Positions 17,428 through 31,898 of a DNA stretch of 32,000 nucleotides are shown here, one piece after another; within the stretch, counting starts at the first letter, position 1, and the number at the start of each line of letters is the position of its first letter. The notes beneath the pieces were generated by a model, which was not told the origin of the DNA, did no database searches, and worked only from the letters and a program-made list of their open reading frames with translations. Location of the stretch: positions 66,022 to 98,021 of the forward strand of contig NZ_MOMB01000001.1 of assembly GCF_002752165.1 (NCBI RefSeq), read 5' to 3'. The stretch is from Erwinia sp. OLFS4 (GTDB taxonomy: Bacteria > Pseudomonadota > Gammaproteobacteria > Enterobacterales > Enterobacteriaceae). Made by a program: the position numbers and the translations under genes.

Positions 17428-17681
17428 AGTATTCAGTCACCGAAGCGCTTTGCAGTTTATTAACAATTCTGTAAACTCTTGCGGTGAAATTATCCCGGTT
17501 AAGAAAGGACTTAACGAGCCTGTTGTTTCAGGCGAGACTGGTGCAGTCAGTTTGTGAATTGCCCCGTATTAAGGACCCGGTGCGTACATGAAGTACGCAA
17601 GGCGTACCGCCTGGCAGGACGCAAAATGACCTTACCGGACAGGCTCAGTGTCTGACCACCGGCAATAAACAAGAGGTCATG

Positions 17682-19106
17682 ATGAGTACAGAAATCAAAG
17701 CTCAGGTCGTGGTACTTGGAGCAGGCCCGGCAGGCTACTCTGCCGCTTTTCGTTGCGCTGATTTAGGTCTGGAAACCGTGCTGGTTGAACGTTACAACAC
17801 GCTTGGCGGCGTTTGTCTTAACGTTGGTTGTATTCCCTCCAAGGCGCTGCTGCACGTCGCCAAAGTGATTGAAGAAGCAAAAGCACTTGAACAGCACGGC
17901 GTTGTTTTTGGTCAGCCTTCAACCGATATCAATAAAATTCGTATCTGGAAAGAAAAGGTCATTTCCCAGCTGACTGGCGGCCTGGCGGGCATGGCCAAAG
18001 GCCGTAAGGTGAAAGTAGTCAACGGTCTGGGTAAATTTACCGGTGCAAATACGCTGGTAGTACAGGGTGAAAAAGACGCCACCACCATTCAGTTTGACAA
18101 TGCGATCATTGCGGCGGGTTCCCGTCCAATCGAACTGCCATTTATTCCTCATGATGACCCGCGTGTATGGGATTCCACCGATGCCCTGGAACTGAAAGAA
18201 GTGCCGGAACGCCTGCTGGTGATGGGCGGCGGAATTATCGGCCTGGAAATGGCAACCGTCTATAATGCGCTGGGTTCGCAGATTGACGTGGTGGAAATGT
18301 TTGATCAGGTGATCCCGGCGGCCGACAAAGACGTGGTGAAAGTGTTCACCAAACGTATCAGCAAACAGTTTAACCTGATGCTGGAAACCAAAGTGACGGC
18401 GGTTGAGGCGAAAAAAGACGGTATTTACGTCACGATGGAAGGTAAAAAAGCGCCGTCTGAACCCCAGCGTTACGATGCGGTGCTGGTTGCTATCGGACGT
18501 GTGCCAAACGGCAAGATGCTGGATGCCGGCCAGGCGGGCGTTACGGTGGATGACCGCGGCTTTATTCACGTTGATAAGCAAATGCGTACCAACGTCCCGC
18601 ATATTTATGCCATTGGTGATATTGTCGGGCAGCCGATGCTGGCACATAAAGGCGTGCACGAAGGCCACGTGGCGGCTGAAGTTATCGCCGGTAAAAAGCA
18701 CTACTTTGACCCGAAAGTGATTCCGTCTATTGCTTACACTGAGCCTGAAGTGGCATGGGTGGGTCTGACCGAGAAAGAAGCCAAAGAAAAAGGCATCAGC
18801 TACGAAACGTCCACCTTCCCGTGGGCCGCTTCCGGTCGTGCTATTGCATCCGATTGTTCAGACGGCATCACTAAGCTGATTTTCGATAAAGAAACGCACC
18901 GCATTATTGGCGGCGCGATCGTTGGCAGTAATGGCGGCGAGCTGTTGGGTGAAATTGGCCTGGCGATTGAAATGGGTTGTGACGCTGAGGACATTGCACT
19001 GACTATCCATGCCCATCCGACGCTGCATGAATCGGTCGGACTGGCGGCTGAGCTGTTTGAAGGCAGCATTACTGATCTGCCTAACCCGAAAGCAAAGAAA
19101 AAGTAA
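17682..19106 (+). CDS. lpdA: Dihydrolipoyl dehydrogenase (E3)
   Basis: MSTEIKAQVVVLGAGPAGYSAAFRCADLGLETV..., with redox-active GGVCLNVGCIPSK and C-terminal DLPNPKAKKK, near-identical to E. coli Lpd (474 aa). There are two adjacent ATGs (17679, 17682); the second fits the AGAGG RBS spacing better. Confidence 0.96.
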   Translation: MSTEIKAQVVVLGAGPAGYSAAFRCADLGLETVLVERYNTLGGVCLNVGCIPSKALLHVAKVIEEAKALEQHGVVFGQPSTDINKIRIWKEKVISQLTGGLAGMAKGRKVKVVNGLGKFTGANTLVVQGEKDATTIQFDNAIIAAGSRPIELPFIPHDDPRVWDSTDALELKEVPERLLVMGGGIIGLEMATVYNALGSQIDVVEMFDQVIPAADKDVVKVFTKRISKQFNLMLETKVTAVEAKKDGIYVTMEGKKAPSEPQRYDAVLVAIGRVPNGKMLDAGQAGVTVDDRGFIHVDKQMRTNVPHIYAIGDIVGQPMLAHKGVHEGHVAAEVIAGKKHYFDPKVIPSIAYTEPEVAWVGLTEKEAKEKGISYETSTFPWAASGRAIASDCSDGITKLIFDKETHRIIGGAIVGSNGGELLGEIGLAIEMGCDAEDIALTIHAHPTLHESVGLAAELFEGSITDLPNPKAKKK

Positions 19107-19332: not shown

Positions 19333-21987
19333 ATGCTGGCCGTAACCGATGGGCTATATCGTTACTGGGGTAAGGCGGCAACAGGGGACAATGGGGCTGC
19401 CATTCGTTGCCATCTGCTGGTCTGGCATTCACTGGATGTGGCGGCAGTGGCCGCCTGCTGGTGGGATCGTGCGCCGGCATTACGTCAACTGCTGTGCGCG
19501 GGCAATCCGCCGGCCGCTTACCGTGCCTGGTTGCTGTTCTTTGTTGCCTTGCACGATTTTGGTAAATGGGACATTCGTTTTCAGGCGAAATGCTGGCCGG
19601 CATGGCGCGCACTGAATCCCGATGAATCCAGTAAAACGCCCCCATGGAACGGTCAATGGGACCATGGTGCTGGCGGATTGTACTGGCTGAAAGAGGATGA
19701 ACGGACTGATGCCGGGCCGGCACAATACCATGATATGAGTGACTTTTTATTAAGTCTGCCGGTTGCGCACTGTCGTCAGGCCTGGTTTCCATGGATGGAA
19801 GCGGTAACCGGGCATCATGGTTATATCTATTCGCACCAGCAGATGACGGCGGCCGATAATCTGGCCTTAACCAGCGCTCTGACCCGGCGCGGCGCTGATG
19901 ATAAACAAACGCGTCAGGCATGGTTAAAGGCGCTGGAAGCCCTGTTTTTACAACCGGCTGGCCTCAGTCTGAATGATCAGCCGCCGCCTTGTTCTCCGTT
20001 ACTTGCGGGCTTCTGTTCAATTGCTGACTGGCTCGGTTCCTGGAGCAGTGAAGACACCTTTGTCTATCAGTCGGTTCGTCAGCCCCTGGCAGATTATTTT
20101 TCTCAGCGCTATCAAAATGATGCGCCTGTTGTGCTCGAACGCAGTGGACTGCTCAGCCAGATCAATGTCTGGCAAGGTATTGAAGCGTTGCTGGCACCGG
20201 GACAGTCAGCGCGCCAGCTGCAAACCTTAGTGAACAGGCTACCAGAACGGCCGGGGTTAACCATTATTGAGGCGCCGACCGGTTCGGGTAAAACGGAAAC
20301 CGCACTGGCGTATGCATGGCGATTGTTAGCCAGTGGTAGTGCGGAAAGTATTGTGTTTGCTCTGCCGACCCAGGCAACGGCGAATGCGATGCTCGACCGG
20401 CTGGATAAGCTGGCTACCTGCCTGTTTAACGCGCCTAATCTGATTCTGGCACACGGAAACTCCCGCCTGAGCCGCGCCTTCCTGGCGGTTAAATCGCGGG
20501 CAGAAAACGTGCAGAAAGAAGATGGGGAGGCCTGGGCACAATGCTGTGAATGGCTGAGTCGCAGCCAGAAGCGTGCCTTTCTTGGCCAGATTGGTGTGTG
20601 TACGATTGATCAGGTGCTTATTTCGGTACTGCCGGTTAAACACCGGTTTATTCGTGGATTTGGTCTTGGACGCAGCGTGCTGCTGGTAGATGAAGTACAT
20701 GCTTATGACACCTACATGCACAAATTGCTGGAGGAAGTATTACATCAGCAATATCTGGCAGGTCAGAGCGCGTTGTTGCTGTCGGCAACCTTACCGCCGG
20801 GTTTAAAGCAGCAGCTGCTGAAAACTTACGGCGGGAGCGCTGAAATACAACAGCATGCCGCGTACCCTCTTGTTACCTGGCAGCAAAAAAATCAGCGCAT
20901 CTATTTTGATCTGAGTGCCACGCCGCAACAACTGCCGCCGTCGTTCAGTCTGACCATTGACCGCCGTTATCTGCCGGTGATGCAGCCGGATGAAGAACTG
21001 CTGGCCGCGATGATAGCAGCAGCACGAGCCGGGGCCCAGGTCTGCCTGATTTGTAATCTGGTTGATGTTGCACAACAGGTTTATCAACAGTTACGTCAGA
21101 GCAGTGAATGTAACGTTATGCTGTTTCACTCCCGCTTTACGCTAAATGACCGCAGCGAAAAAGAAGCCAGCACCCTGGCGTTCTTTGGTAAGTCCGGCGA
21201 TCGTTGTGTTGGTCGCATTCTGGTGGCCACTCAGGTGGTTGAGCAGTCTCTCGATGTTGATTTTGACTGGTTAATTACGCAACTCTGTCCCGCCGACTTC
21301 CTGTTCCAGCGAGCCGGGCGTTTGCACCGCCACCACCGTGAAAAGCGTCCGCCAGGCTATCAGCAGCCGGTTCTGACGGTACTGCTGCCGGACACGGACG
21401 ACTATGGCAACAGTAATTATATCTATAGCAATACGCGGGCGATGTGGCGTACGCAGCGCTTACTTGAACGTCTTAATACTGACGCACTGGTTTTTCCTTC
21501 CGCATACCGTCGCTGGATAGATGAGGTGTACCACACCGAACCCGTTGTTGACGAACCTGGCTGGGTGACATCAGGTATGCAGACGTTTGCGGATAAAGAG
21601 CAGTCGCGCCGTTATAACGCCCGGCTAATGCTGAACAGTGCACAAAACGTGAGGCCATTCGCGGATGATGACAGCCATGTGCGCGCGGTGACGCGCGACG
21701 GCGAAATGAGTTTGCCGTTACTGCCATTCATTAACACACCTGATGGCCGGCGGCTGCTGGACGGACAGATAATCGAAAGTCTCGGTGAATATTCTGTTGC
21801 TGAACAGCTGATGCTCAACCGGGTAAACGTGCCATATCACTGGCAGAAAAACGGGCTGCCGGAGCCGGACGAACATGGCGTGGTATGGATTGCCGGTCGG
21901 CAGCGGGATGGACAGTGGTTCGCTGATCTGGCCGGCGGACAGCTAGATTATTCGCCGGAAACCGGCATGTCGAAGACGGCAGTCTGA
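19333..21987 (+). CDS. cas3: Type I-E CRISPR-associated helicase/nuclease Cas3 (HD + DEAH helicase)
   Basis: MLAVTDGLYRYWGKAA... parallels E. coli Cas3 (..YICHYWGKSS..). HD motifs LHDFGK and VTGHHG, Walker A EAPTGSGKTE and VDEVHAYD are present, and it is colinear with E. coli YgcB throughout (..ILVATQVVEQSLDVDFDWLITQ..). The track start 19282 is a TTG; the ATG at 19333 follows GGGA. Confidence 0.93.
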   Translation: MLAVTDGLYRYWGKAATGDNGAAIRCHLLVWHSLDVAAVAACWWDRAPALRQLLCAGNPPAAYRAWLLFFVALHDFGKWDIRFQAKCWPAWRALNPDESSKTPPWNGQWDHGAGGLYWLKEDERTDAGPAQYHDMSDFLLSLPVAHCRQAWFPWMEAVTGHHGYIYSHQQMTAADNLALTSALTRRGADDKQTRQAWLKALEALFLQPAGLSLNDQPPPCSPLLAGFCSIADWLGSWSSEDTFVYQSVRQPLADYFSQRYQNDAPVVLERSGLLSQINVWQGIEALLAPGQSARQLQTLVNRLPERPGLTIIEAPTGSGKTETALAYAWRLLASGSAESIVFALPTQATANAMLDRLDKLATCLFNAPNLILAHGNSRLSRAFLAVKSRAENVQKEDGEAWAQCCEWLSRSQKRAFLGQIGVCTIDQVLISVLPVKHRFIRGFGLGRSVLLVDEVHAYDTYMHKLLEEVLHQQYLAGQSALLLSATLPPGLKQQLLKTYGGSAEIQQHAAYPLVTWQQKNQRIYFDLSATPQQLPPSFSLTIDRRYLPVMQPDEELLAAMIAAARAGAQVCLICNLVDVAQQVYQQLRQSSECNVMLFHSRFTLNDRSEKEASTLAFFGKSGDRCVGRILVATQVVEQSLDVDFDWLITQLCPADFLFQRAGRLHRHHREKRPPGYQQPVLTVLLPDTDDYGNSNYIYSNTRAMWRTQRLLERLNTDALVFPSAYRRWIDEVYHTEPVVDEPGWVTSGMQTFADKEQSRRYNARLMLNSAQNVRPFADDDSHVRAVTRDGEMSLPLLPFINTPDGRRLLDGQIIESLGEYSVAEQLMLNRVNVPYHWQKNGLPEPDEHGVVWIAGRQRDGQWFADLAGGQLDYSPETGMSKTAV

Positions 21988-22170
21988 GGTGACGTTATTC
22001 TGCCGGGGAAGAGGGGGGTGCTTAAAATTCAACCATAATCACAAGGTTACATTAACGGCAGGTCATTAACTTTGTTTGTTGTGAAGCGTAAAACGTCATC
22101 ATCACTTAACATTGACTGACGATTTTTTGCTGTAACCAGGCAATTAAAAAATAGTTATCACGGAGGAATA

Positions 22171-23709
22171 ATGCGTCTGCTCATTGATCCATGGATTCCT
22201 GTCCGGCCAGCGGCAGGCGGGGCATCTGAACACATTACCTTGCAGCAGCTGCTGTGCGATCCGCAGCAGCGTTTGCTGAGCCTGCCGCGTGATGATATGG
22301 AACTGGCTGCCAGTCAGTTGCTTATCAGCATTGTGCAGATTCTTTGGCCTCCCGGCGATCTTAACCAGCTGGTTGCGCGTCTTGTTAAACCGCTTTCTCC
22401 GGAAGAGTTTCTGGCGGGCATTGAAGATTACATCGCAGATTTTGACCTTAGCCACCCGCATTATCCGTTTATGCAGGTAAAAGGCGTGATGGCTAAGGAT
22501 GTCACCGGTATGGACAAACTGATGGTGGGATTGACCGGTTCCACCTGTTGTGCCTTCGTTAATCAGCCCGGGCAGGGCGAAGCGCTGTGTGCCGGTTGTA
22601 GCGCCATTGCGCTATTCAATCAGGCCAGTAACGCACCGGGATTTGGTGGCGGTTTCAAAAGTGGTCTGCGCGGCGGTACGCCGATTACGACCCTGGTGCA
22701 GCAGCCCTGCTTACGCACCACCGTCTGGGCAAATGTGCTGACTCAGCAGAACCTTGATAAACACTATCCGCAGTGGCAGACGCAGGATAAACATGACTTT
22801 ACCTGGCGCCAGCCTATAACCAGTAACCAGCAGATATACGCACACCATATTGGCCTGGCGCGCGGACTGTTCTGGCAGCCGGCCCATATTGAACTGCTGG
22901 CGCCGGGGTCCGGCGGAACCTGCAGCGCCTGCGGTGGCGAAGTCACTCAGCGTTATCATGGTTTCCTTAAAGCTAAATTTAACTTTACCGTCACTGATTT
23001 CTGGCTTCACCCACATTCGCCATCGGTTATGCAGAGTAAAAAAGGGCAGACCGAACAGCGATATATTGGTTTTAGCACAGAAGCCCCTTGCTGGACCCAG
23101 ATTGGCCGGCTACTTATCCGTCATCAGTTAGAACAAAAGCAAGAAGGCCGCAGGCCGGCGCTGGTGGTGGAACAGGCGCGCGAGCTGGTGGGGGATGCTA
23201 ACCGGCTGTATTTAAGTATTGGCGGTTACCGCAACAATCAGGCGGCTATTCTGGAGCGACGCCATGAAGTCATGGTGTTTAATCAGGGCTGGGAACGTCA
23301 TCTGAACGTGATTAACGAAATTGTTCAGGCTGGCGACAGCTACCGGCTGGCATTGCGTAAAGCGTTGTATATTTTTGCTGAAGGTATGCGGGAAAAGGGC
23401 ATTAAAGGGGCCGGCGTGGCGGTGCATCTTAAAGCCGAGCCGCGCTATTACCGGCAAACTAATCTTATTATCACACCGCTGCTGGCGACAATAAATTATC
23501 AGCAACCACAGGCGGCACTTAATAAGCTGCACAGGCAGTTGTTTGAACTGTGCCAGCGACTGTTTGATGATGCGACTCTTCCTTATAGCCATCAACCGGA
23601 ATTGATTCTGACGCTGGCGTTTACCCGACGAATTCTGAATAAAAACCTATTCGCTCTGAATGCGCAAGGAGAGCAAACTGATGATGTCATCAAGCAGACA
23701 ATCAATTGA
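22171..23709 (+). CDS. cse1: Cascade large subunit Cse1/CasA (Cas8e)
   Basis: 512 aa, MRLLIDPWIPVRP...LSLPRDDMELAA...FVNQPGQGEALCAGCSAIALFNQA..APGFGGGFKSGLRGGTP, strongly similar to E. coli CasA. GGAGG RBS at 22162-22166. Confidence 0.93.
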   Translation: MRLLIDPWIPVRPAAGGASEHITLQQLLCDPQQRLLSLPRDDMELAASQLLISIVQILWPPGDLNQLVARLVKPLSPEEFLAGIEDYIADFDLSHPHYPFMQVKGVMAKDVTGMDKLMVGLTGSTCCAFVNQPGQGEALCAGCSAIALFNQASNAPGFGGGFKSGLRGGTPITTLVQQPCLRTTVWANVLTQQNLDKHYPQWQTQDKHDFTWRQPITSNQQIYAHHIGLARGLFWQPAHIELLAPGSGGTCSACGGEVTQRYHGFLKAKFNFTVTDFWLHPHSPSVMQSKKGQTEQRYIGFSTEAPCWTQIGRLLIRHQLEQKQEGRRPALVVEQARELVGDANRLYLSIGGYRNNQAAILERRHEVMVFNQGWERHLNVINEIVQAGDSYRLALRKALYIFAEGMREKGIKGAGVAVHLKAEPRYYRQTNLIITPLLATINYQQPQAALNKLHRQLFELCQRLFDDATLPYSHQPELILTLAFTRRILNKNLFALNAQGEQTDDVIKQTIN

Positions 23710-24154
23710 TGCTATGGGGCTGTACCGTGACTGGCTGGCGCTCGATAAGGGTACCAGCGCAAAACTCAGACGGGCAACAACGCCGGAAGCGTTACTCGAC
23801 ATTCCTGCCTTTTACGCGCTGGTTTCACCCTATGGCTGGCCAGAGCAGCGCTACCCGCTATTGCGATGTGTTTTCTGTCTGACATCCGGTGCGATTACGC
23901 ATTGTGATGATGACAGCCTGACGCTCGGGCGGGCGCTGGCCAGAAGTGAGAAAATTAATCTGTCGCGCGTGACGCATTTGATACGTCAGGATTCGCCGCA
24001 GGATATGGTGCAACTACGTCGAATACTTATTCATGCAGAACCCCGGTTGTACTGGCCGTCTCTGGCTGAGCAGCTAACGTGGTGGGGTAAATATGATCGC
24101 CGCACGCTGCTTGAACACTTCGTTCTCTCTTATTCCGCTAATTCCATCAAATAA
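23681..24154 (+). CDS. cse2: Cascade small subunit Cse2/CasB (Cas11e)
   Basis: MMSSSRQSIDAMGLYRDWLALDKG...DIPAFYALV...MVQLRRILIHAEP parallels E. coli CasB (MADEIDAMALYRAW...). AAGGAG at 23666-23671 precedes the ATG at 23681. It overlaps the cse1 3' end by 29 nt. Confidence 0.88.
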   Translation: MMSSSRQSIDAMGLYRDWLALDKGTSAKLRRATTPEALLDIPAFYALVSPYGWPEQRYPLLRCVFCLTSGAITHCDDDSLTLGRALARSEKINLSRVTHLIRQDSPQDMVQLRRILIHAEPRLYWPSLAEQLTWWGKYDRRTLLEHFVLSYSANSIK

Positions 24155-24170
24155 GGTGTAAGGATACTCA

Positions 24171-25271
24171 ATGAATAACTTTATTAATTTCCATGTTCTG
24201 ATTTCTCACAGCCCCTCCTGTCTGAACCGTGATGACATGAATATGCAAAAAGATGCCGTGTTTGGCGGTAAGCGACGGGTGCGTATTTCCAGTCAAAGTC
24301 TGAAGCGGGCGATGCGCAAGGGGGAGTATTACCAGCAGCATATCGGCGAGTCGAGTATCCGCACCATTCATCTTGAATTGCTGCGTGACAAAGTGCATCA
24401 GCATTTCGCAACGCGATACTCCAGCGAAGTGCTCAATACTGCCCTGAGTTTGTTGAGCGGTAAAACTATCGATCAGTCTGCGGCCATTGATGGCGGCGCC
24501 GTCTCTCCCTGGGTGATGGATGAAATTGACTGGTTCTGTCAGCAACTCAGTCATCCGGACAATGCGTCATTGGGCAACGATGAAAAGAAATGGTCAAAAT
24601 TGCTGAAAGAGCAGATTACCGGTCTGCGTTCAGCACTGAATAGCGCAGTGGATATTGCCCTGAGCGGACGTATGGCCACCAGTGGTTTGATGAGCGAACT
24701 GGGGAAAGTGGATGGGGCAATGTCGCTGGCGCACGCCATTACTACCCATGCGGTGGAATCAGATATCGACTGGTTTACTGCGGTAGACGATCTGAACGAT
24801 AAAAGCGGGGCGGCGCATCTGGGCACTCAGGAGTTTTCGGCCGGCGTTTTCTATCGCTATGCCAGCCTGAATATTGCTCAGCTGCAGGAAAACCTCGGTG
24901 GGGCCACGCGTGCGCAGGCGTTAACTATTGCGGCGCATCTCGCGCATATGCTGGCAACCGAAATACCCGGAGCCAAACAGCACAGTTTTGCTGCATTTAA
25001 CCCGGCGGATCTGGTGATGGTTAATTTTTCTGATTTACCGGTGTCGCTGGCAAATGCTTTTGAAAAACCGGTTGTGGCCAAAAAAGAGGGCTTCCTGCAG
25101 CCTTCGATTGAGGCGTTAAATGCGTACTGGGAACGTGTCGCCAGCGGCTATGCTCTCAATGGTCCGGCGGCACAATTTATTTTAGGTGACGACGTGGGTG
25201 CCGGGCAGGTGGTTCAGATGCCGGATCTTAATGCCCTGAAACAGTGGATTGTGAATAATAGCGAGGCATGA
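24171..25271 (+). CDS. cas7: Cascade backbone subunit Cas7e/CasC
   Basis: 366 aa; [49 protein letters not shown] is almost identical to the E. coli CasC N-terminus. Confidence 0.95.
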
Positions 25272-25272
25272 A

Positions 25273-25938
25273 ATGCAGGATTATCTGGTCTTGCGGCTCA
25301 CAGGCCCGATGCAAGCCTGGGGATTGCCGACATTTGAAGGAACACGGCCTTGTGCGACCTTTCCCGGGCGCAGTGGTTTACTGGGTTTGCTTGCCGCCTG
25401 CCTTGGCATTAAACGTAACGATCGCACCAGGCTAAAAATGCTCGCTGACAGCGTCAGGTTTGCCGTGCGCTGTGACAACCATCTGCCCTATCGGCCCACT
25501 TATCTGACCGACTTTCATACCGTGAAAGATGCCAGAGAAAAGGCCGGGGGCCTGAAAATGAATGACACCATTATCACCCGACGAGAGTATCTTTGTGATG
25601 CCAGCTTTAGCGTGGTGGTCTGGACACCTTCCGGCGAAGGGCAGGGTTTGACGCTGGACGTGTTGACGGCGGCAGTGCAGAAGCCGGTTTACACCCCGTA
25701 TCTCGGGCGGCGTAGTTGCCCGTTGACGCATCCTTTATTTCACTGCGTCATTAACGCTGAAAATCCTGCCTGCGCGCTGGCGTCCGCCATACCAGGTAGT
25801 GGCGTGATTTATAGTGAAGAAGCGATCAGCGGCGATGAACGGCGTTTGCCGGTCCGTGATGAACCCATTTTTCATCTTCCTCGTCAGTTCACCAGCAGAA
25901 CGTGGTTTGTTATTCAGCAGGAGGAAACATGTTTCTGA
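25273..25938 (+). CDS. cas5: Cascade subunit Cas5e/CasD
   Basis: 221 aa, MQDYLVLRLTGPMQAWG.PTFEGTRP...YTPYLGRRSCPLTHPLF, colinear with E. coli CasD. Confidence 0.93.
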   Translation: MQDYLVLRLTGPMQAWGLPTFEGTRPCATFPGRSGLLGLLAACLGIKRNDRTRLKMLADSVRFAVRCDNHLPYRPTYLTDFHTVKDAREKAGGLKMNDTIITRREYLCDASFSVVVWTPSGEGQGLTLDVLTAAVQKPVYTPYLGRRSCPLTHPLFHCVINAENPACALASAIPGSGVIYSEEAISGDERRLPVRDEPIFHLPRQFTSRTWFVIQQEETCF

Positions 25939-26531
25939 GCAAGGTTGCTATTGACTGGCGCTGGGCAAAGGACCCTTATCAGCTGCATCGTGCACTGTGG
26001 CAATTATTTCCTGACCGGCCGACGGCCCAGCGTGACTTTTTGTTTCGGGTGGAAGAGGGCGGTAATAGCCAGCAAGGTATACCGGTTTTATTACAATCGG
26101 TCAGTTCACCACAACAAAGTCAGGCAGCCATTGTGCTGGCAAGTAAATCCATTAACTATGCTTTGCCGCCAGGGGCGCTGCTCAATTTCCGGCTGCGTGC
26201 CAATCCGGTGAAGACAATTAAAGACAGCCAGGGGCGTACCAATCGCCATGGCCAAATAAAAAGTTGTCGCGTACCGTTAGTGACAGAGGAAGAGTGTCTG
26301 GCGTGGCTGGCGCGTAAACTGGCTTCAGCGGCATGCTTGCGCTCGGCCCGTATCATACGCGAACCGGCACTGCGCTTTGATAAAAAAGGCGTGGGTGGAA
26401 AAATTCAGCCGCTGTGTTTTGAAGGTGAGCTGGTGGTAGAGCAGCCGGCAAATTTACATGATCTGATAAGCCAGGGAATTGGTCCCGGCAAAAGTATGGG
26501 CTGTGGTTTACTGTCGCTGGCAAGGGCATAG
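25929..26531 (+). CDS. cas6e: CRISPR RNA endoribonuclease Cas6e/CasE
   Basis: MFLSKVAIDWRWAKDPYQLHRALWQLFPDRP...GIGPGKSMGCGLLSLA parallels E. coli CasE (MYLSKVIIARAW...). AGGAGG at 25917-25922 precedes the ATG at 25929. The track ORF starts 9 codons upstream. Confidence 0.92.
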   Translation: MFLSKVAIDWRWAKDPYQLHRALWQLFPDRPTAQRDFLFRVEEGGNSQQGIPVLLQSVSSPQQSQAAIVLASKSINYALPPGALLNFRLRANPVKTIKDSQGRTNRHGQIKSCRVPLVTEEECLAWLARKLASAACLRSARIIREPALRFDKKGVGGKIQPLCFEGELVVEQPANLHDLISQGIGPGKSMGCGLLSLARA

Positions 26532-26560
26532 CCTGGTAAAAAGGAAAACAGGAGGTTGCT

Positions 26561-27774
<1,214 letters not shown>

Positions 27775-27858
27775 GTTAGCGCTCTTTAACAAACTGAAAA
27801 AATCGGTAGAATAGCAGGGTGATGTAAAACTCTTTATATTCAATGGTATAAGCTAAGA
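27775..27858 (+). promoter_or_regulatory. CRISPR leader (AT-rich, 84 nt) with candidate pre-crRNA promoters
   Basis: It lies between the cas2 stop and repeat 1. Candidate -10 elements are TAGAAT (27807-27812, with TTTAAC 16 nt upstream) and an extended -10, TGgTATAAG (27844-27852). Confidence 0.55.
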
Positions 27859-30694
27859 GTGTTCCCCACATGCGTGGGGATAAACCGCAGTGCCGGGAGG
27901 TTGGACGGGAGCCACGGGAGTGTTCCCCACATGCGTGGGGATAAACCCAGTGCCGGGAGGTTGGACGGGAGCCACGGGACGTGTTCCCCACATGCGTGGG
28001 GATAAACCGGAAATTACCATGAGCACAGTAACCGCTGAAACGTGTTCCCCACATGCGTGGGGATAAACCGCAAAGGGGGGATTTGAAGGGAAAGGGGCAG
28101 AAGTGTTCCCCACATGCGTGGGGATAAACCGATGAACAAGCTACGTTATTTCCGGAGAAAGGTGTGTTCCCCACATGCGTGGGGATAAACCGAATGACCA
28201 TGCATCCACTGAACTGCATACATAGTGTTCCCCACATGCGTGGGGATAAACCGGCGCGGAACGCTGTTACGAAACGGCAGCGTGGGTGTTCCCCACATGC
28301 GTGGGGATAAACCGGTTTTATCCAACGAGGTAAATTTACTGAATAAGTGTTCCCCACATGCGTGGGGATAAACCGCCAATCGAAGAACATTTACACCATC
28401 CATGTATGTGTTCCCCACATGCGTGGGGATAAACCGCTGTATTCAGAGTCGGATCTGGTTCACTTCGCGTGTTCCCCACATGCGTGGGGATAAACCGATT
28501 TTAGAACCCTTTGTGTACCCGGGAACTTGGTGTTCCCCACATGCGTGGGGATAAACCGGGGATGCTGCGCAAGATTGAGGCGCTGCTGGCGTGTTCCCCA
28601 CATGCGTGGGGATAAACCGGTTATTTTCGAGTTTACTGATAGCGAGGCTGAGTGTTCCCCACATGCGTGGGGATAAACCGGCGAGAACGAGGTGATCGCC
28701 GCCCCGCGCGGCGTGTTCCCCACATGCGTGGGGATAAACCGGTGTCCTGACGCCTGAACATTTAATCAAACCCGTGTTCCCCACATGCGTGGGGATAAAC
28801 CGCGCCCGGCACGGGCTTTTACCATGCCGCAGACGTGTTCCCCACATGCGTGGGGATAAACCGCCACGATTACTTTTGACTATGAGCATAAATTAGTGTT
28901 CCCCACATGCGTGGGGATAAACCGCAACGCCGGTTTTCACGTCACGATTAATCAGCGTGTTCCCCACATGCGTGGGGATAAACCGACTGTGGCATATATT
29001 TTGATGCCGCAGCGACCGTGTTCCCCACATGCGTGGGGATAAACCTTGCACTTCCGCCAGGCGTGTCTGCACAATATCGTGTTCCCCACATGCGTGGGGA
29101 TAAACCGTCGATGCGGCGATGGCTTACATGAAAAACTCGGTGTTCCCCACATGCGTGGGGATAAACCGGTGGAAATTGAAAAATGACAACTAAACGCGGC
29201 GTGTTCCCCACATGCGTGGGGATAAACCGATTTTTGCTGATGATTTGCACACTCAATATCTGTGTTCCCCACATGCGTGGGGATAAACCGCGGCCTGCGT
29301 CAATGTGCTGGGCGTAAGGGGTGTGTTCCCCACATGCGTGGGGATAAACCGTATTAACTATGGAATATGCAAAAACACGCAAAGTGTTCCCCACATGCGT
29401 GGGGATAAACCGGCACGATCAACACCGTTAAATCCATTGATGAAGTGTTCCCCACATGCGTGGGGATAAACCGCTACACCATGTTATCAAGTCTGCAGTA
29501 GGTGCGTGTTCCCCACATGCGTGGGGATAAACCGATAATCGGCTAACCAAAATTAATTCAAGGGCTGTGTTCCCCACATGCGTGGGGATAAACCGCGGCT
29601 TGGAGATGACAAATGAACAGCAAACCGGTGTTCCCCACATGCGTGGGGATAAACCGAAAACCACAGTAGACGAACGTACCCCACTCCGGTGTTCCCCACA
29701 TGCGTGGGGATAAACCGTTAACCCACTGATTAAAATGCAAGAAGTAGGCGTGTTCCCCACATGCGTGGGGATAAACCGCGTGAACTCGTGATTGTACTTT
29801 GACAGCGCTGGTGTTCCCCACATGCGTGGGGATAAACCGTATCTCGCTCAGCCAGCAAAACCACAGTAGACGTGTTCCCCACATGCGTGGGGATAAACCG
29901 AAAGCTGTACAGGCCAACTGAGCAGCAGAATGGTGTTCCCCACATGCGTGGGGATAAACCGACCCGAATAAGCTGTTTCCGGGAACAACGTGGGTGTTCC
30001 CCACATGCGTGGGGATAAACCGGGCTGGGTATGGATTTAAAGAGCGCGCCTCCTGTGTTCCCCACATGCGTGGGGATAAACCGCTGTTTACCGAGCAGCA
30101 CCATGGTGCGCACGTGTGTTCCCCACATGCGTGGGGATAAACCGGTTGTGCCTGTGCCGGTAACTGTTGCCGACTGGTGTTCCCCACATGCGTGGGGATA
30201 AACCGCTACGTCAGAGATGATGGGCAACTGATAGCCAGTGTTCCCCACATGCGTGGGGATAAACCGAAAATAATCGGCTATTTTTTCTCCGGCAGCCCGT
30301 GTTCCCCACATGCGTGGGGATAAACCGGTGTAGACCTATTTGCAGCAATATTCGCTCTTGTGTTCCCCACATGCGTGGGGATAAACCTACTTCCGTTTTT
30401 TCGTCCTCATTTGAGGATACGTGTTCCCCACATGCGTGGGGATAAACCGCTTCATTCTGTGTTGCTGAACACTCATAGAGTGTGTTCCCCACATGCGTGG
30501 GGATAAACCGCCCGCAAAACAGTGCGTTTTGTCGGTAACTATGTGTTTCCCATCTGCGCGGAAATAAACCGAAAAAATCCACTAAATCTTTTCTCAACTT
30601 TACGCGCTCCCCACGTACATGGGGATAAACCGTTGGATAATCACCTGCCGTGGTGGTGATGAAAGGCATGTCCTGGTAACGAGGACATAAACCG
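27859..30694 (+). CRISPR. Type I-E CRISPR array: 47 repeats, 46 spacers
   Basis: The repeat GTGTTCCCCACATGCGTGGGGATAAACCG (29 nt; stem CCCCAC/GTGGGG; 3' ATAAACCG handle) recurs every 61 nt from 27859 to 30482 (R1-R44), with 32-nt spacers. R2 ends in C; R20 and R42 end in T. R45 (30543), R46 (30604) and R47 (30666-30694) are progressively degenerate, and the last spacer is 33 nt. Orientation and leader position match E. coli I-E. Confidence 0.98.
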
Positions 30695-31139: not shown

Positions 31140-31898
31140 ATGTTTGCATTTTTTTCTGCAAATTATACAGCGACTAATACACTGCGGAATTATATCGAGA
31201 GAAAACTTCAGCGATATGATTCACTGGAGTATGCCTATATTGTGGTAAACAAGAAAAATCCTGCAGACGCTCTTATTATCTCCAATTATCCGGATAAGTG
31301 GGTCCAGTTATATCGGGATAATAATTTTCAGCTCACCGACCCGGTTATTCTTTTCGCTTTTAAAAGAACTTCGCCTTTTGCGTGGGACGAAAATATTACA
31401 TTATTGTCGGATATGCAGTTTAACAAAGTATTCACGCTTTCCCGGCAGTATAATATTGTTAATGGTTTTACATTTGTATTACATGATCACATGAATAATC
31501 TGGCGTTACTTTCGTTCATTATCAGAGCGGCACACCGCCAGGAGCTGGAACAGCATCTTGCTACTGAACAGGCCGAATTGCAGATGCAGCTGATTAATTT
31601 TAATGAGCAGATGTACCGACTAACTGGCTCTATTGCACAGAAGGAACAGGTACAAATTGCCGGCGAGAGCAATGCCATTTTTACCCTGAGGGAAAATGAA
31701 GTGCTTTACTGGGTGAGCATGGGGAAAACCTATGCGGAAACGGCTATTATTAGCGGCATATCGCTCAGCACAGTGAAATTTCACGTTAAAAATATTGTTG
31801 CTAAACTTGGTGTCAGTAACGTCCGGCAGGCAATTCGTCTCGGCGTTGAGCTTGATCTGATCAGACCGGCGCCCTCTGCAACAAGAACCAGGTTGTAA
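31140..31898 (+). CDS. esaR: LuxR-family N-acyl-homoserine-lactone receptor/transcription regulator, EsaR/ExpR type
   Basis: 252 aa with long colinear identity to my recollection of Pantoea stewartii EsaR (NNFQLTDPVIL.AFKRTSPFAWDENITL.SD, QYNIVNGFT.VLHDHMNNLALLS, FNEQMYRL, RENEVLYW.SMGKTYAE.A.I.GIS.STVKFH.KN.V.KLGVSN.RQAIRLGVELDLIRPA). Orthologues are named expR or eamR in other Erwiniaceae and Pectobacteriaceae. GGAG RBS at 31131-31134. Confidence 0.88.
   Translation: MFAFFSANYTATNTLRNYIERKLQRYDSLEYAYIVVNKKNPADALIISNYPDKWVQLYRDNNFQLTDPVILFAFKRTSPFAWDENITLLSDMQFNKVFTLSRQYNIVNGFTFVLHDHMNNLALLSFIIRAAHRQELEQHLATEQAELQMQLINFNEQMYRLTGSIAQKEQVQIAGESNAIFTLRENEVLYWVSMGKTYAETAIISGISLSTVKFHVKNIVAKLGVSNVRQAIRLGVELDLIRPAPSATRTRL

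Follow-up and report, generated by a model that had tools for sequence, protein, structure and literature searches.

At the leader end of a type I-E CRISPR array in Erwinia sp. OLFS4, two neighbouring spacers carry essentially the same sequence one base apart, and the repeat between them departs from the consensus in its last letter. The question raised by this locus is whether a unit of the array was copied within the genome, or whether one foreign site was captured twice, in two registers. The window referred to below is the whole stretch of 32,000 nucleotides that was analysed. The units concerned, as obtained by reading the sequence and parsing the array, are as follows.

27859..27887, + strand: repeat 1, GTGTTCCCCACATGCGTGGGGATAAACCG, with the canonical terminal G at 27887
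27888..27919, + strand: spacer 1 (the newest), CAGTGCCGGGAGGTTGGACGGGAGCCACGGGA, CAGTGCC...GGGA
27920..27948, + strand: repeat 2, ending ...AACCC, with C and not G at 27948
27949..27980, + strand: spacer 2, AGTGCCGGGAGGTTGGACGGGAGCCACGGGAC, AGTGCC...GGGAC
27981..28009, + strand: repeat 3, canonical, G-ending

These readings bear out what an earlier note on this DNA had described, namely 31 identical nucleotides shared by spacers 1 and 2 at an offset of one base, a terminal C instead of G in repeat 2, and a 61-nt period that continues unbroken through both units. The window has exactly two copies of the shared 31-mer, against a chance expectation of none, even if three mismatches are allowed. 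When each spacer is taken together with the last base of the repeat before it, the resulting 33-mers (G plus spacer 1, and C plus spacer 2) tile a single 34-mer without conflict, GCAGTGCCGGGAGGTTGGACGGGAGCCACGGGAC, which starts GCAGTGCC and ends GGGAC, and the C of repeat 2 is at once the first base of spacer 1 and the base preceding spacer 2 in the deduced target. The terminal G of repeat 1 is read as the last PAM base, imported with spacer 1; spacer 1 would then stand in the canonical register (PAM xxG), and spacer 2 in the +1 register with the PAM xGC, or AGC if the site carries AAG. As in a +1 slip, the prespacer length of 33 nt is retained with a non-G base at position 29 of repeat 2, and the canonical-register prespacer lies exactly 1 nt upstream on the same strand, being spacer 1 with its own repeat base G. 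Processing of the crRNA of unit 2 should be unaffected, because base 29 sits outside the repeat hairpin. With a G+C content of 72%, spacers 1 and 2 rank second highest in the array (array mean 49%, window 53%), a possible sign of a GC-rich source that differs from the enterobacterial plasmids to which other spacers correspond.

The cas operon and the array

The pair stands in a locus with a complete type I-E gene set, in which each of the eight genes has a Pfam match and an intact ORF. Gene coordinates were taken from the identical contig L001 (window position = L001 position + 17480), and the array was parsed from the sequence by script.

19333..27774, + strand: type I-E cas operon, intact (Pfam-based gene calls and ORF list)
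19333-21987, + strand: cas3
22171-23709, + strand: cse1/cas8e (Cse1/CasA in the source)
23681-24154, + strand: cse2
24171-25271, + strand: cas7
25273-25938, + strand: cas5
25929-26531, + strand: cas6e
26561-27475, + strand: cas1 (Cas1e in the source)
27481-27774, + strand: cas2 (Cas2e in the source)
27775..27858, + strand: leader, 84 nt, AT-rich, between cas2 and repeat 1, ending ...CTAAGA
27859..30510, + strand: CRISPR array of 44 repeats and 43 spacers

GenBank contig MOMA01000026.1 (assembly GCA_002752075.1, draft WGS) contains the window in identical form. At least four 'unclassified Erwinia' GenBank genomes, Erwinia sp. OLTSP20 among them, encode Cas1, Cas2, Cse1 and the downstream LuxR-type protein with 100% identity, and an exact protein look-up returned six contigs each for Cas2, Cas1 and the downstream LuxR protein. 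Among GTDB representatives, the nearest Cas1 proteins are just 84-85% identical (Pantoea sp. 1.19 and Erwinia sp. MMLR14_017), and the synteny of lpdA and cas3 is common to the window and Erwinia sp. MMLR14_017. The entire CRISPR-Cas locus is flanked by lpdA and acnB, and the interval between them also holds a LuxR-solo regulator (autoinducer-binding plus GerE) and a staphylococcal-nuclease-like gene (window 17679-19106 and 31140-31898, and downstream on L001).

All 43 spacers are 32 nt long, the start-to-start spacing is 61 nt throughout, and the 28-nt core of the repeat is free of substitutions and indels across the array. The 29-nt consensus given above for repeat 1 is of the ...CCCC-loop-GGGGATAAACCG type, with a predicted hairpin that matches that of the E. 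coli repeat, and AAAAAATCGGTAGA and a terminal TAGA are common to the leader and to that of a second array described below. The orientation of the array is confirmed by its protospacers, because every PAM lies 5' of the spacer on the + strand. Three repeats end in a base other than G, namely repeat 2 (C, 27948), repeat 20 (T, 29046) and repeat 42 (T, 30388), the last two of which were absent from the earlier note. Spacer 28 (29535-29566) and spacer 40 (30267-30298) have the 11-mer ATAATCGGCTA in common and then diverge; the match may reflect related source sequences or chance.

The origin of the last repeat base

In the type I-E system of E. coli, the G of a new repeat comes from the AAG PAM (review PMC10011333), and the earlier note had carried this over to the present array by deriving the last repeat base from the incoming protospacer. 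Plasmids and phages were queried with the array, and then with a repeat-free concatenate of all spacers from both arrays (A2 denoting the second). Perfect plasmid protospacers were obtained for seven spacers, each of which matches over 33 of 33 positions, that is, into the last repeat base.

S17: PAM AAG, pO157_Sal-type plasmids
S31: PAM AAG, Serratia transfer-region plasmids
S39: PAM AAG, Klebsiella plasmid
A2_S6: PAM AAG, pO157_Sal-type plasmids
A2_S11: PAM AAG, Serratia plasmids
S21: PAM AGG, Serratia plasmids (traW)
S42: PAM GAT, Citrobacter freundii IncX7 plasmid pCf.1_3

The PAM of these perfect protospacers is AAG in five cases, AGG in one and GAT in one, and the base at -1 equals repeat base 29 in every one of them, so that the derivation from the incoming protospacer holds for all seven, T-ending repeat 42 included. 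The latter provides the key case for a base other than G, since the T of repeat 42 together with its spacer (30388-30420) is found at 33/33 in pCf.1_3. Because its PAM is GAT and AAG is absent nearby, S42 represents a non-canonical-PAM acquisition and not a slip. Erwinia phage Pavtok was also considered as the target of S42, but matches at just 27/32 positions with C at -1, and the perfect match in pCf.1_3 was preferred. For spacer 20 (29046-29078 with the T of repeat 20), the plasmid/phage and E. coli genome searches returned no protospacer.

Each of the three non-G terminal bases is isolated, the next-newer repeat being back to G in all cases. As these bases were left uncopied in the next-newer repeat, integration duplicates the 28-nt core alone, and base 29 moves together with its spacer, as in E. 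coli. The C of repeat 2 is therefore best read as target-derived, given the agreement between base -1 and the last repeat base in 7/7 protospacers, including that of the non-G repeat 42. A possible exception is formed by S30 (29657-29688) and S33 (29840-29871), where the last 15 nt of S33 equal the first 15 nt of S30 (AAAACCACAGTAGAC) as if their protospacers overlapped at a distance of 17 nt. In S33 the overlap is preceded by C, yet the repeat of S30 ends in G, and a templated base 29 would here need different target alleles or a repeated motif.

Several of the matched spacers fall close together on their targets. S21 (29108-29139, traW), S31 (29718-29749, DotA/TraY) and A2_S11 (excA) all lie in IncI-like transfer regions of Serratia plasmids, and S17 (28864-28895) and A2_S6 match pO157_Sal-type conjugative plasmids on one and the same strand, at a distance of 5.6 kb; the second-array spacers that match these shared plasmid families are at L001 19159-19190 and 19464-19495. 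This clustering of both arrays on shared plasmid families, at distances of a few kb, is expected from repeated or primed sampling of one element and is compatible with priming.

The protospacer of the pair was sought with the 34-mer. Against phage and plasmid collections, blastn returned no match for it, just chance-level partial matches, and there was none in IMG/VR by the exact 31-mer, three wobble-degenerate codon-phase patterns or two 18-nt half-sites; two IMG/VR half-site matches agreed at 21/34 and 22/34 positions only and did not extend. The GTDB representative genomes, JGI metagenomes and E. coli complete genomes likewise contained no copy. A metagenome scan for the exact repeat found four loci, none of which has a spacer in common with the array.

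Two probable captures of one site, and the alternatives

Two independent integrations of one foreign site in adjacent registers, one canonical and the other slipped by +1, very probably account for the pair. Cas1-Cas2 would have integrated two 33-nt prespacers from a single site, 5'-..G/CAGTGCC...GGGA/C..-3' (slashes mark the ends of spacer 1), on two occasions, both times at the leader-proximal repeat. In the event with PAM-side processing in the normal register, the G of the PAM would be kept and become repeat base 29, followed by spacer 1. In the slipped event, processing one base further in (the '+1 slip') would keep the base C, and the captured spacer 2 would extend one base more at the far end. 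Both units keep the 61-nt period, and repeat 2 carries C, because the 28-nt core alone is duplicated and base 29 is supplied by the prespacer. By array polarity, the slipped spacer 2 would have entered first and the canonical spacer 1 second, an order that draws on the general rule of leader-proximal integration, and the site would be flanked by AAG. Both captures most likely took place during one encounter with a plasmid or phage in which the site was a favoured prespacer.

Such slips are well documented in E. coli, where Shmakov et al. (2014, PMC4027179) described type I-E slippage of ±1-2 nt around AAG sites and where deep primed-adaptation data place +1 slips as the top non-AAG class (37%), giving AGN PAMs (bioRxiv 10.1101/2020.02.10.942821). 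The earlier interpretation of spacer 2 as a slipped acquisition is supported by these +1 slips, together with the AAG PAM of this I-E system, the rule for base 29, the uncopied non-G bases and the fact that true duplicates stay in register.

The last of these points comes from a survey of 72 type I-E loci fetched through Cas1, with about 3,088 spacers, in which roughly forty duplicate spacer pairs were all in register, two further pairs overlapped at offsets of 5-7 nt, and spacers 1 and 2 formed the sole ±1 pair; in this small survey, the frequency of such a pair is about 1 in 3,000 spacers. The same contig offers a direct comparison in its other array, which lies outside the window.

L001 18825-19829, ~5.3 kb downstream of the first array: second type I-E array, 17 repeats, between acnB and a UPF0231 gene

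The repeat of this array differs from the first in one base of the loop (ACATACGT). The two spacers nearest the trailer, ACCTGGATGGAACAGTTGATGGTTCGAAGGCC, duplicate each other exactly and in register, and the last repeat is degenerate (GTAGGG). Simple duplication of a unit is a poor fit to spacers 1 and 2, with their 1-nt offset and C-ending repeat 2, when duplicates in the second array and in relatives are in register.

A duplication could still have been followed by two compensating changes of 1 nt. Replication slippage or unequal recombination would have copied the unit in register, after which the terminal G of repeat 2 was lost and a C gained between the spacer copy and repeat 3, either by mutation or through indel errors of the assembly. 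In-register duplication is common in I-E arrays, as the second array exemplifies, and the outcome would have the very sequence observed; yet three events are needed, including one indel at precisely each of the two spacer boundaries, whereas the other 42 units and the 16 units of the second array are free of any indel and the repeat cores are intact. The assembly is not prone to indels, because the cas operon, 8.4 kb long, has every ORF intact, and none of the roughly forty surveyed duplicate pairs is shifted in this way, all of which makes a duplication with later indels extremely improbable. An artefact of the assembly itself, in which a mixed culture held two subclones with either spacer 1 or spacer 2 at the leader end and the two were joined in tandem, is very unlikely. 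The record is a draft WGS contig (MOMA01000026.1), and leader and spacer 1 both end in GA, so that k-mers of up to 31 could link spacer 1 to repeat 2 with its C. Against this, two variants of one path normally give a collapsed bubble and not a concatenation, a false join would be unsupported by longer k-mers or reads, the rest of the 2.6-kb array is perfectly periodic, and two samples record the same contig. Even a true artefact would still imply that the site was acquired in two registers within one population.

The order and the lineage of the two events can be questioned separately from their number. Spacer 2 might have been inserted ectopically at the second repeat after spacer 1, in an interference-driven acquisition from a degrading target, or the two acquisitions might have occurred in different cells and been united by recombination between arrays; judged from the integration mechanism, either route would yield exactly the observed sequence, and in a native type I-F system acquisition is reported to be mainly interference-driven (PMC5059440). 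Leader-proximal integration is, however, a strong rule for I-E, and the leader end bears no other trace of ectopic insertion or array recombination, so that a departure from the simple succession of slip and canonical capture in one lineage appears improbable. Two captures of one site, the slipped one before the canonical one, remain the preferred reading.

Possible priming, significance and comparison with known systems

The earlier note had added that the adaptation was possibly primed. In such a course of events, the slipped acquisition would have provided partial immunity and priming, which in turn led to the fully functional canonical spacer, and the array would be a natural in-genome record of this process in a wild type I-E system; we regard this as a tentative proposal that is rather less than likely. 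Spacer 2, with an AGC PAM, may give partial interference and prime further uptake. The proposal is compatible with the order of the spacers and with their strand, spacer 1 being on the same strand as spacer 2, and AGC, the PAM presumed here, shows intermediate interference and is adaptation- and priming-proficient in E. coli (PMC6568314). What counts against priming here is that, in E. coli, uptake is inefficient from prespacers within about 200 bp of the priming site. Two draws from one favoured prespacer in one encounter are a simpler reading than re-capture primed by the slip.

The wild Erwinia pair displays two details otherwise known mainly from E. coli experiments, namely that incoming DNA provides the last base of the repeat and that the register of capture can slip by one base, and it suggests that the Erwinia I-E system took up spacers recently. 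Should sister isolates carry spacer 2 alone, the pair would become a dated natural example for testing slip-primed uptake; if the primed reading is true, it would provide evidence from the field that primed adaptation is seeded by slipped spacers, with the priming site itself re-captured.

Compared with in-register duplication of a unit, the pair is alike in that adjacent units carry essentially one spacer, but duplicated units are identical and in phase, whereas the Erwinia units show the 1-nt offset and the matching change of the last repeat base. Slipped spacers in type I-F Pectobacterium atrosepticum are reported to promote primed adaptation (Staals et al., 2016, PMC5059440; Jackson et al., 2019, Cell Host Microbe), and the two systems would resemble each other in that a slipped spacer with a suboptimal PAM came first and another spacer against that element was added later. 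They differ in subtype (I-E and I-F) and in that priming in Erwinia is a candidate only; moreover, the newer Erwinia spacer sits on the priming site itself, where the E. coli data suggest inefficient uptake.

The closest counterpart is the slipping described for the I-E system of E. coli K-12 (Shmakov et al., 2014, PMC4027179; bioRxiv 10.1101/2020.02.10.942821), which has the same subtype and AAG PAM as Erwinia. Both cases involve a 33-nt prespacer whose last PAM base becomes repeat base 29, and a length-preserving 1-nt shift from which an AGN PAM is predicted. The Erwinia pair, unlike the E. coli slips, is known from the array alone, its target PAM being deduced. Work on E. coli and other type I systems had already revealed the mechanism, and nothing in it is new. 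The E. coli slips are a minority of reads spread across populations in adaptation assays, whereas in Erwinia both registers are fixed next to each other in a single wild array, and this rare natural record is the unusual part.
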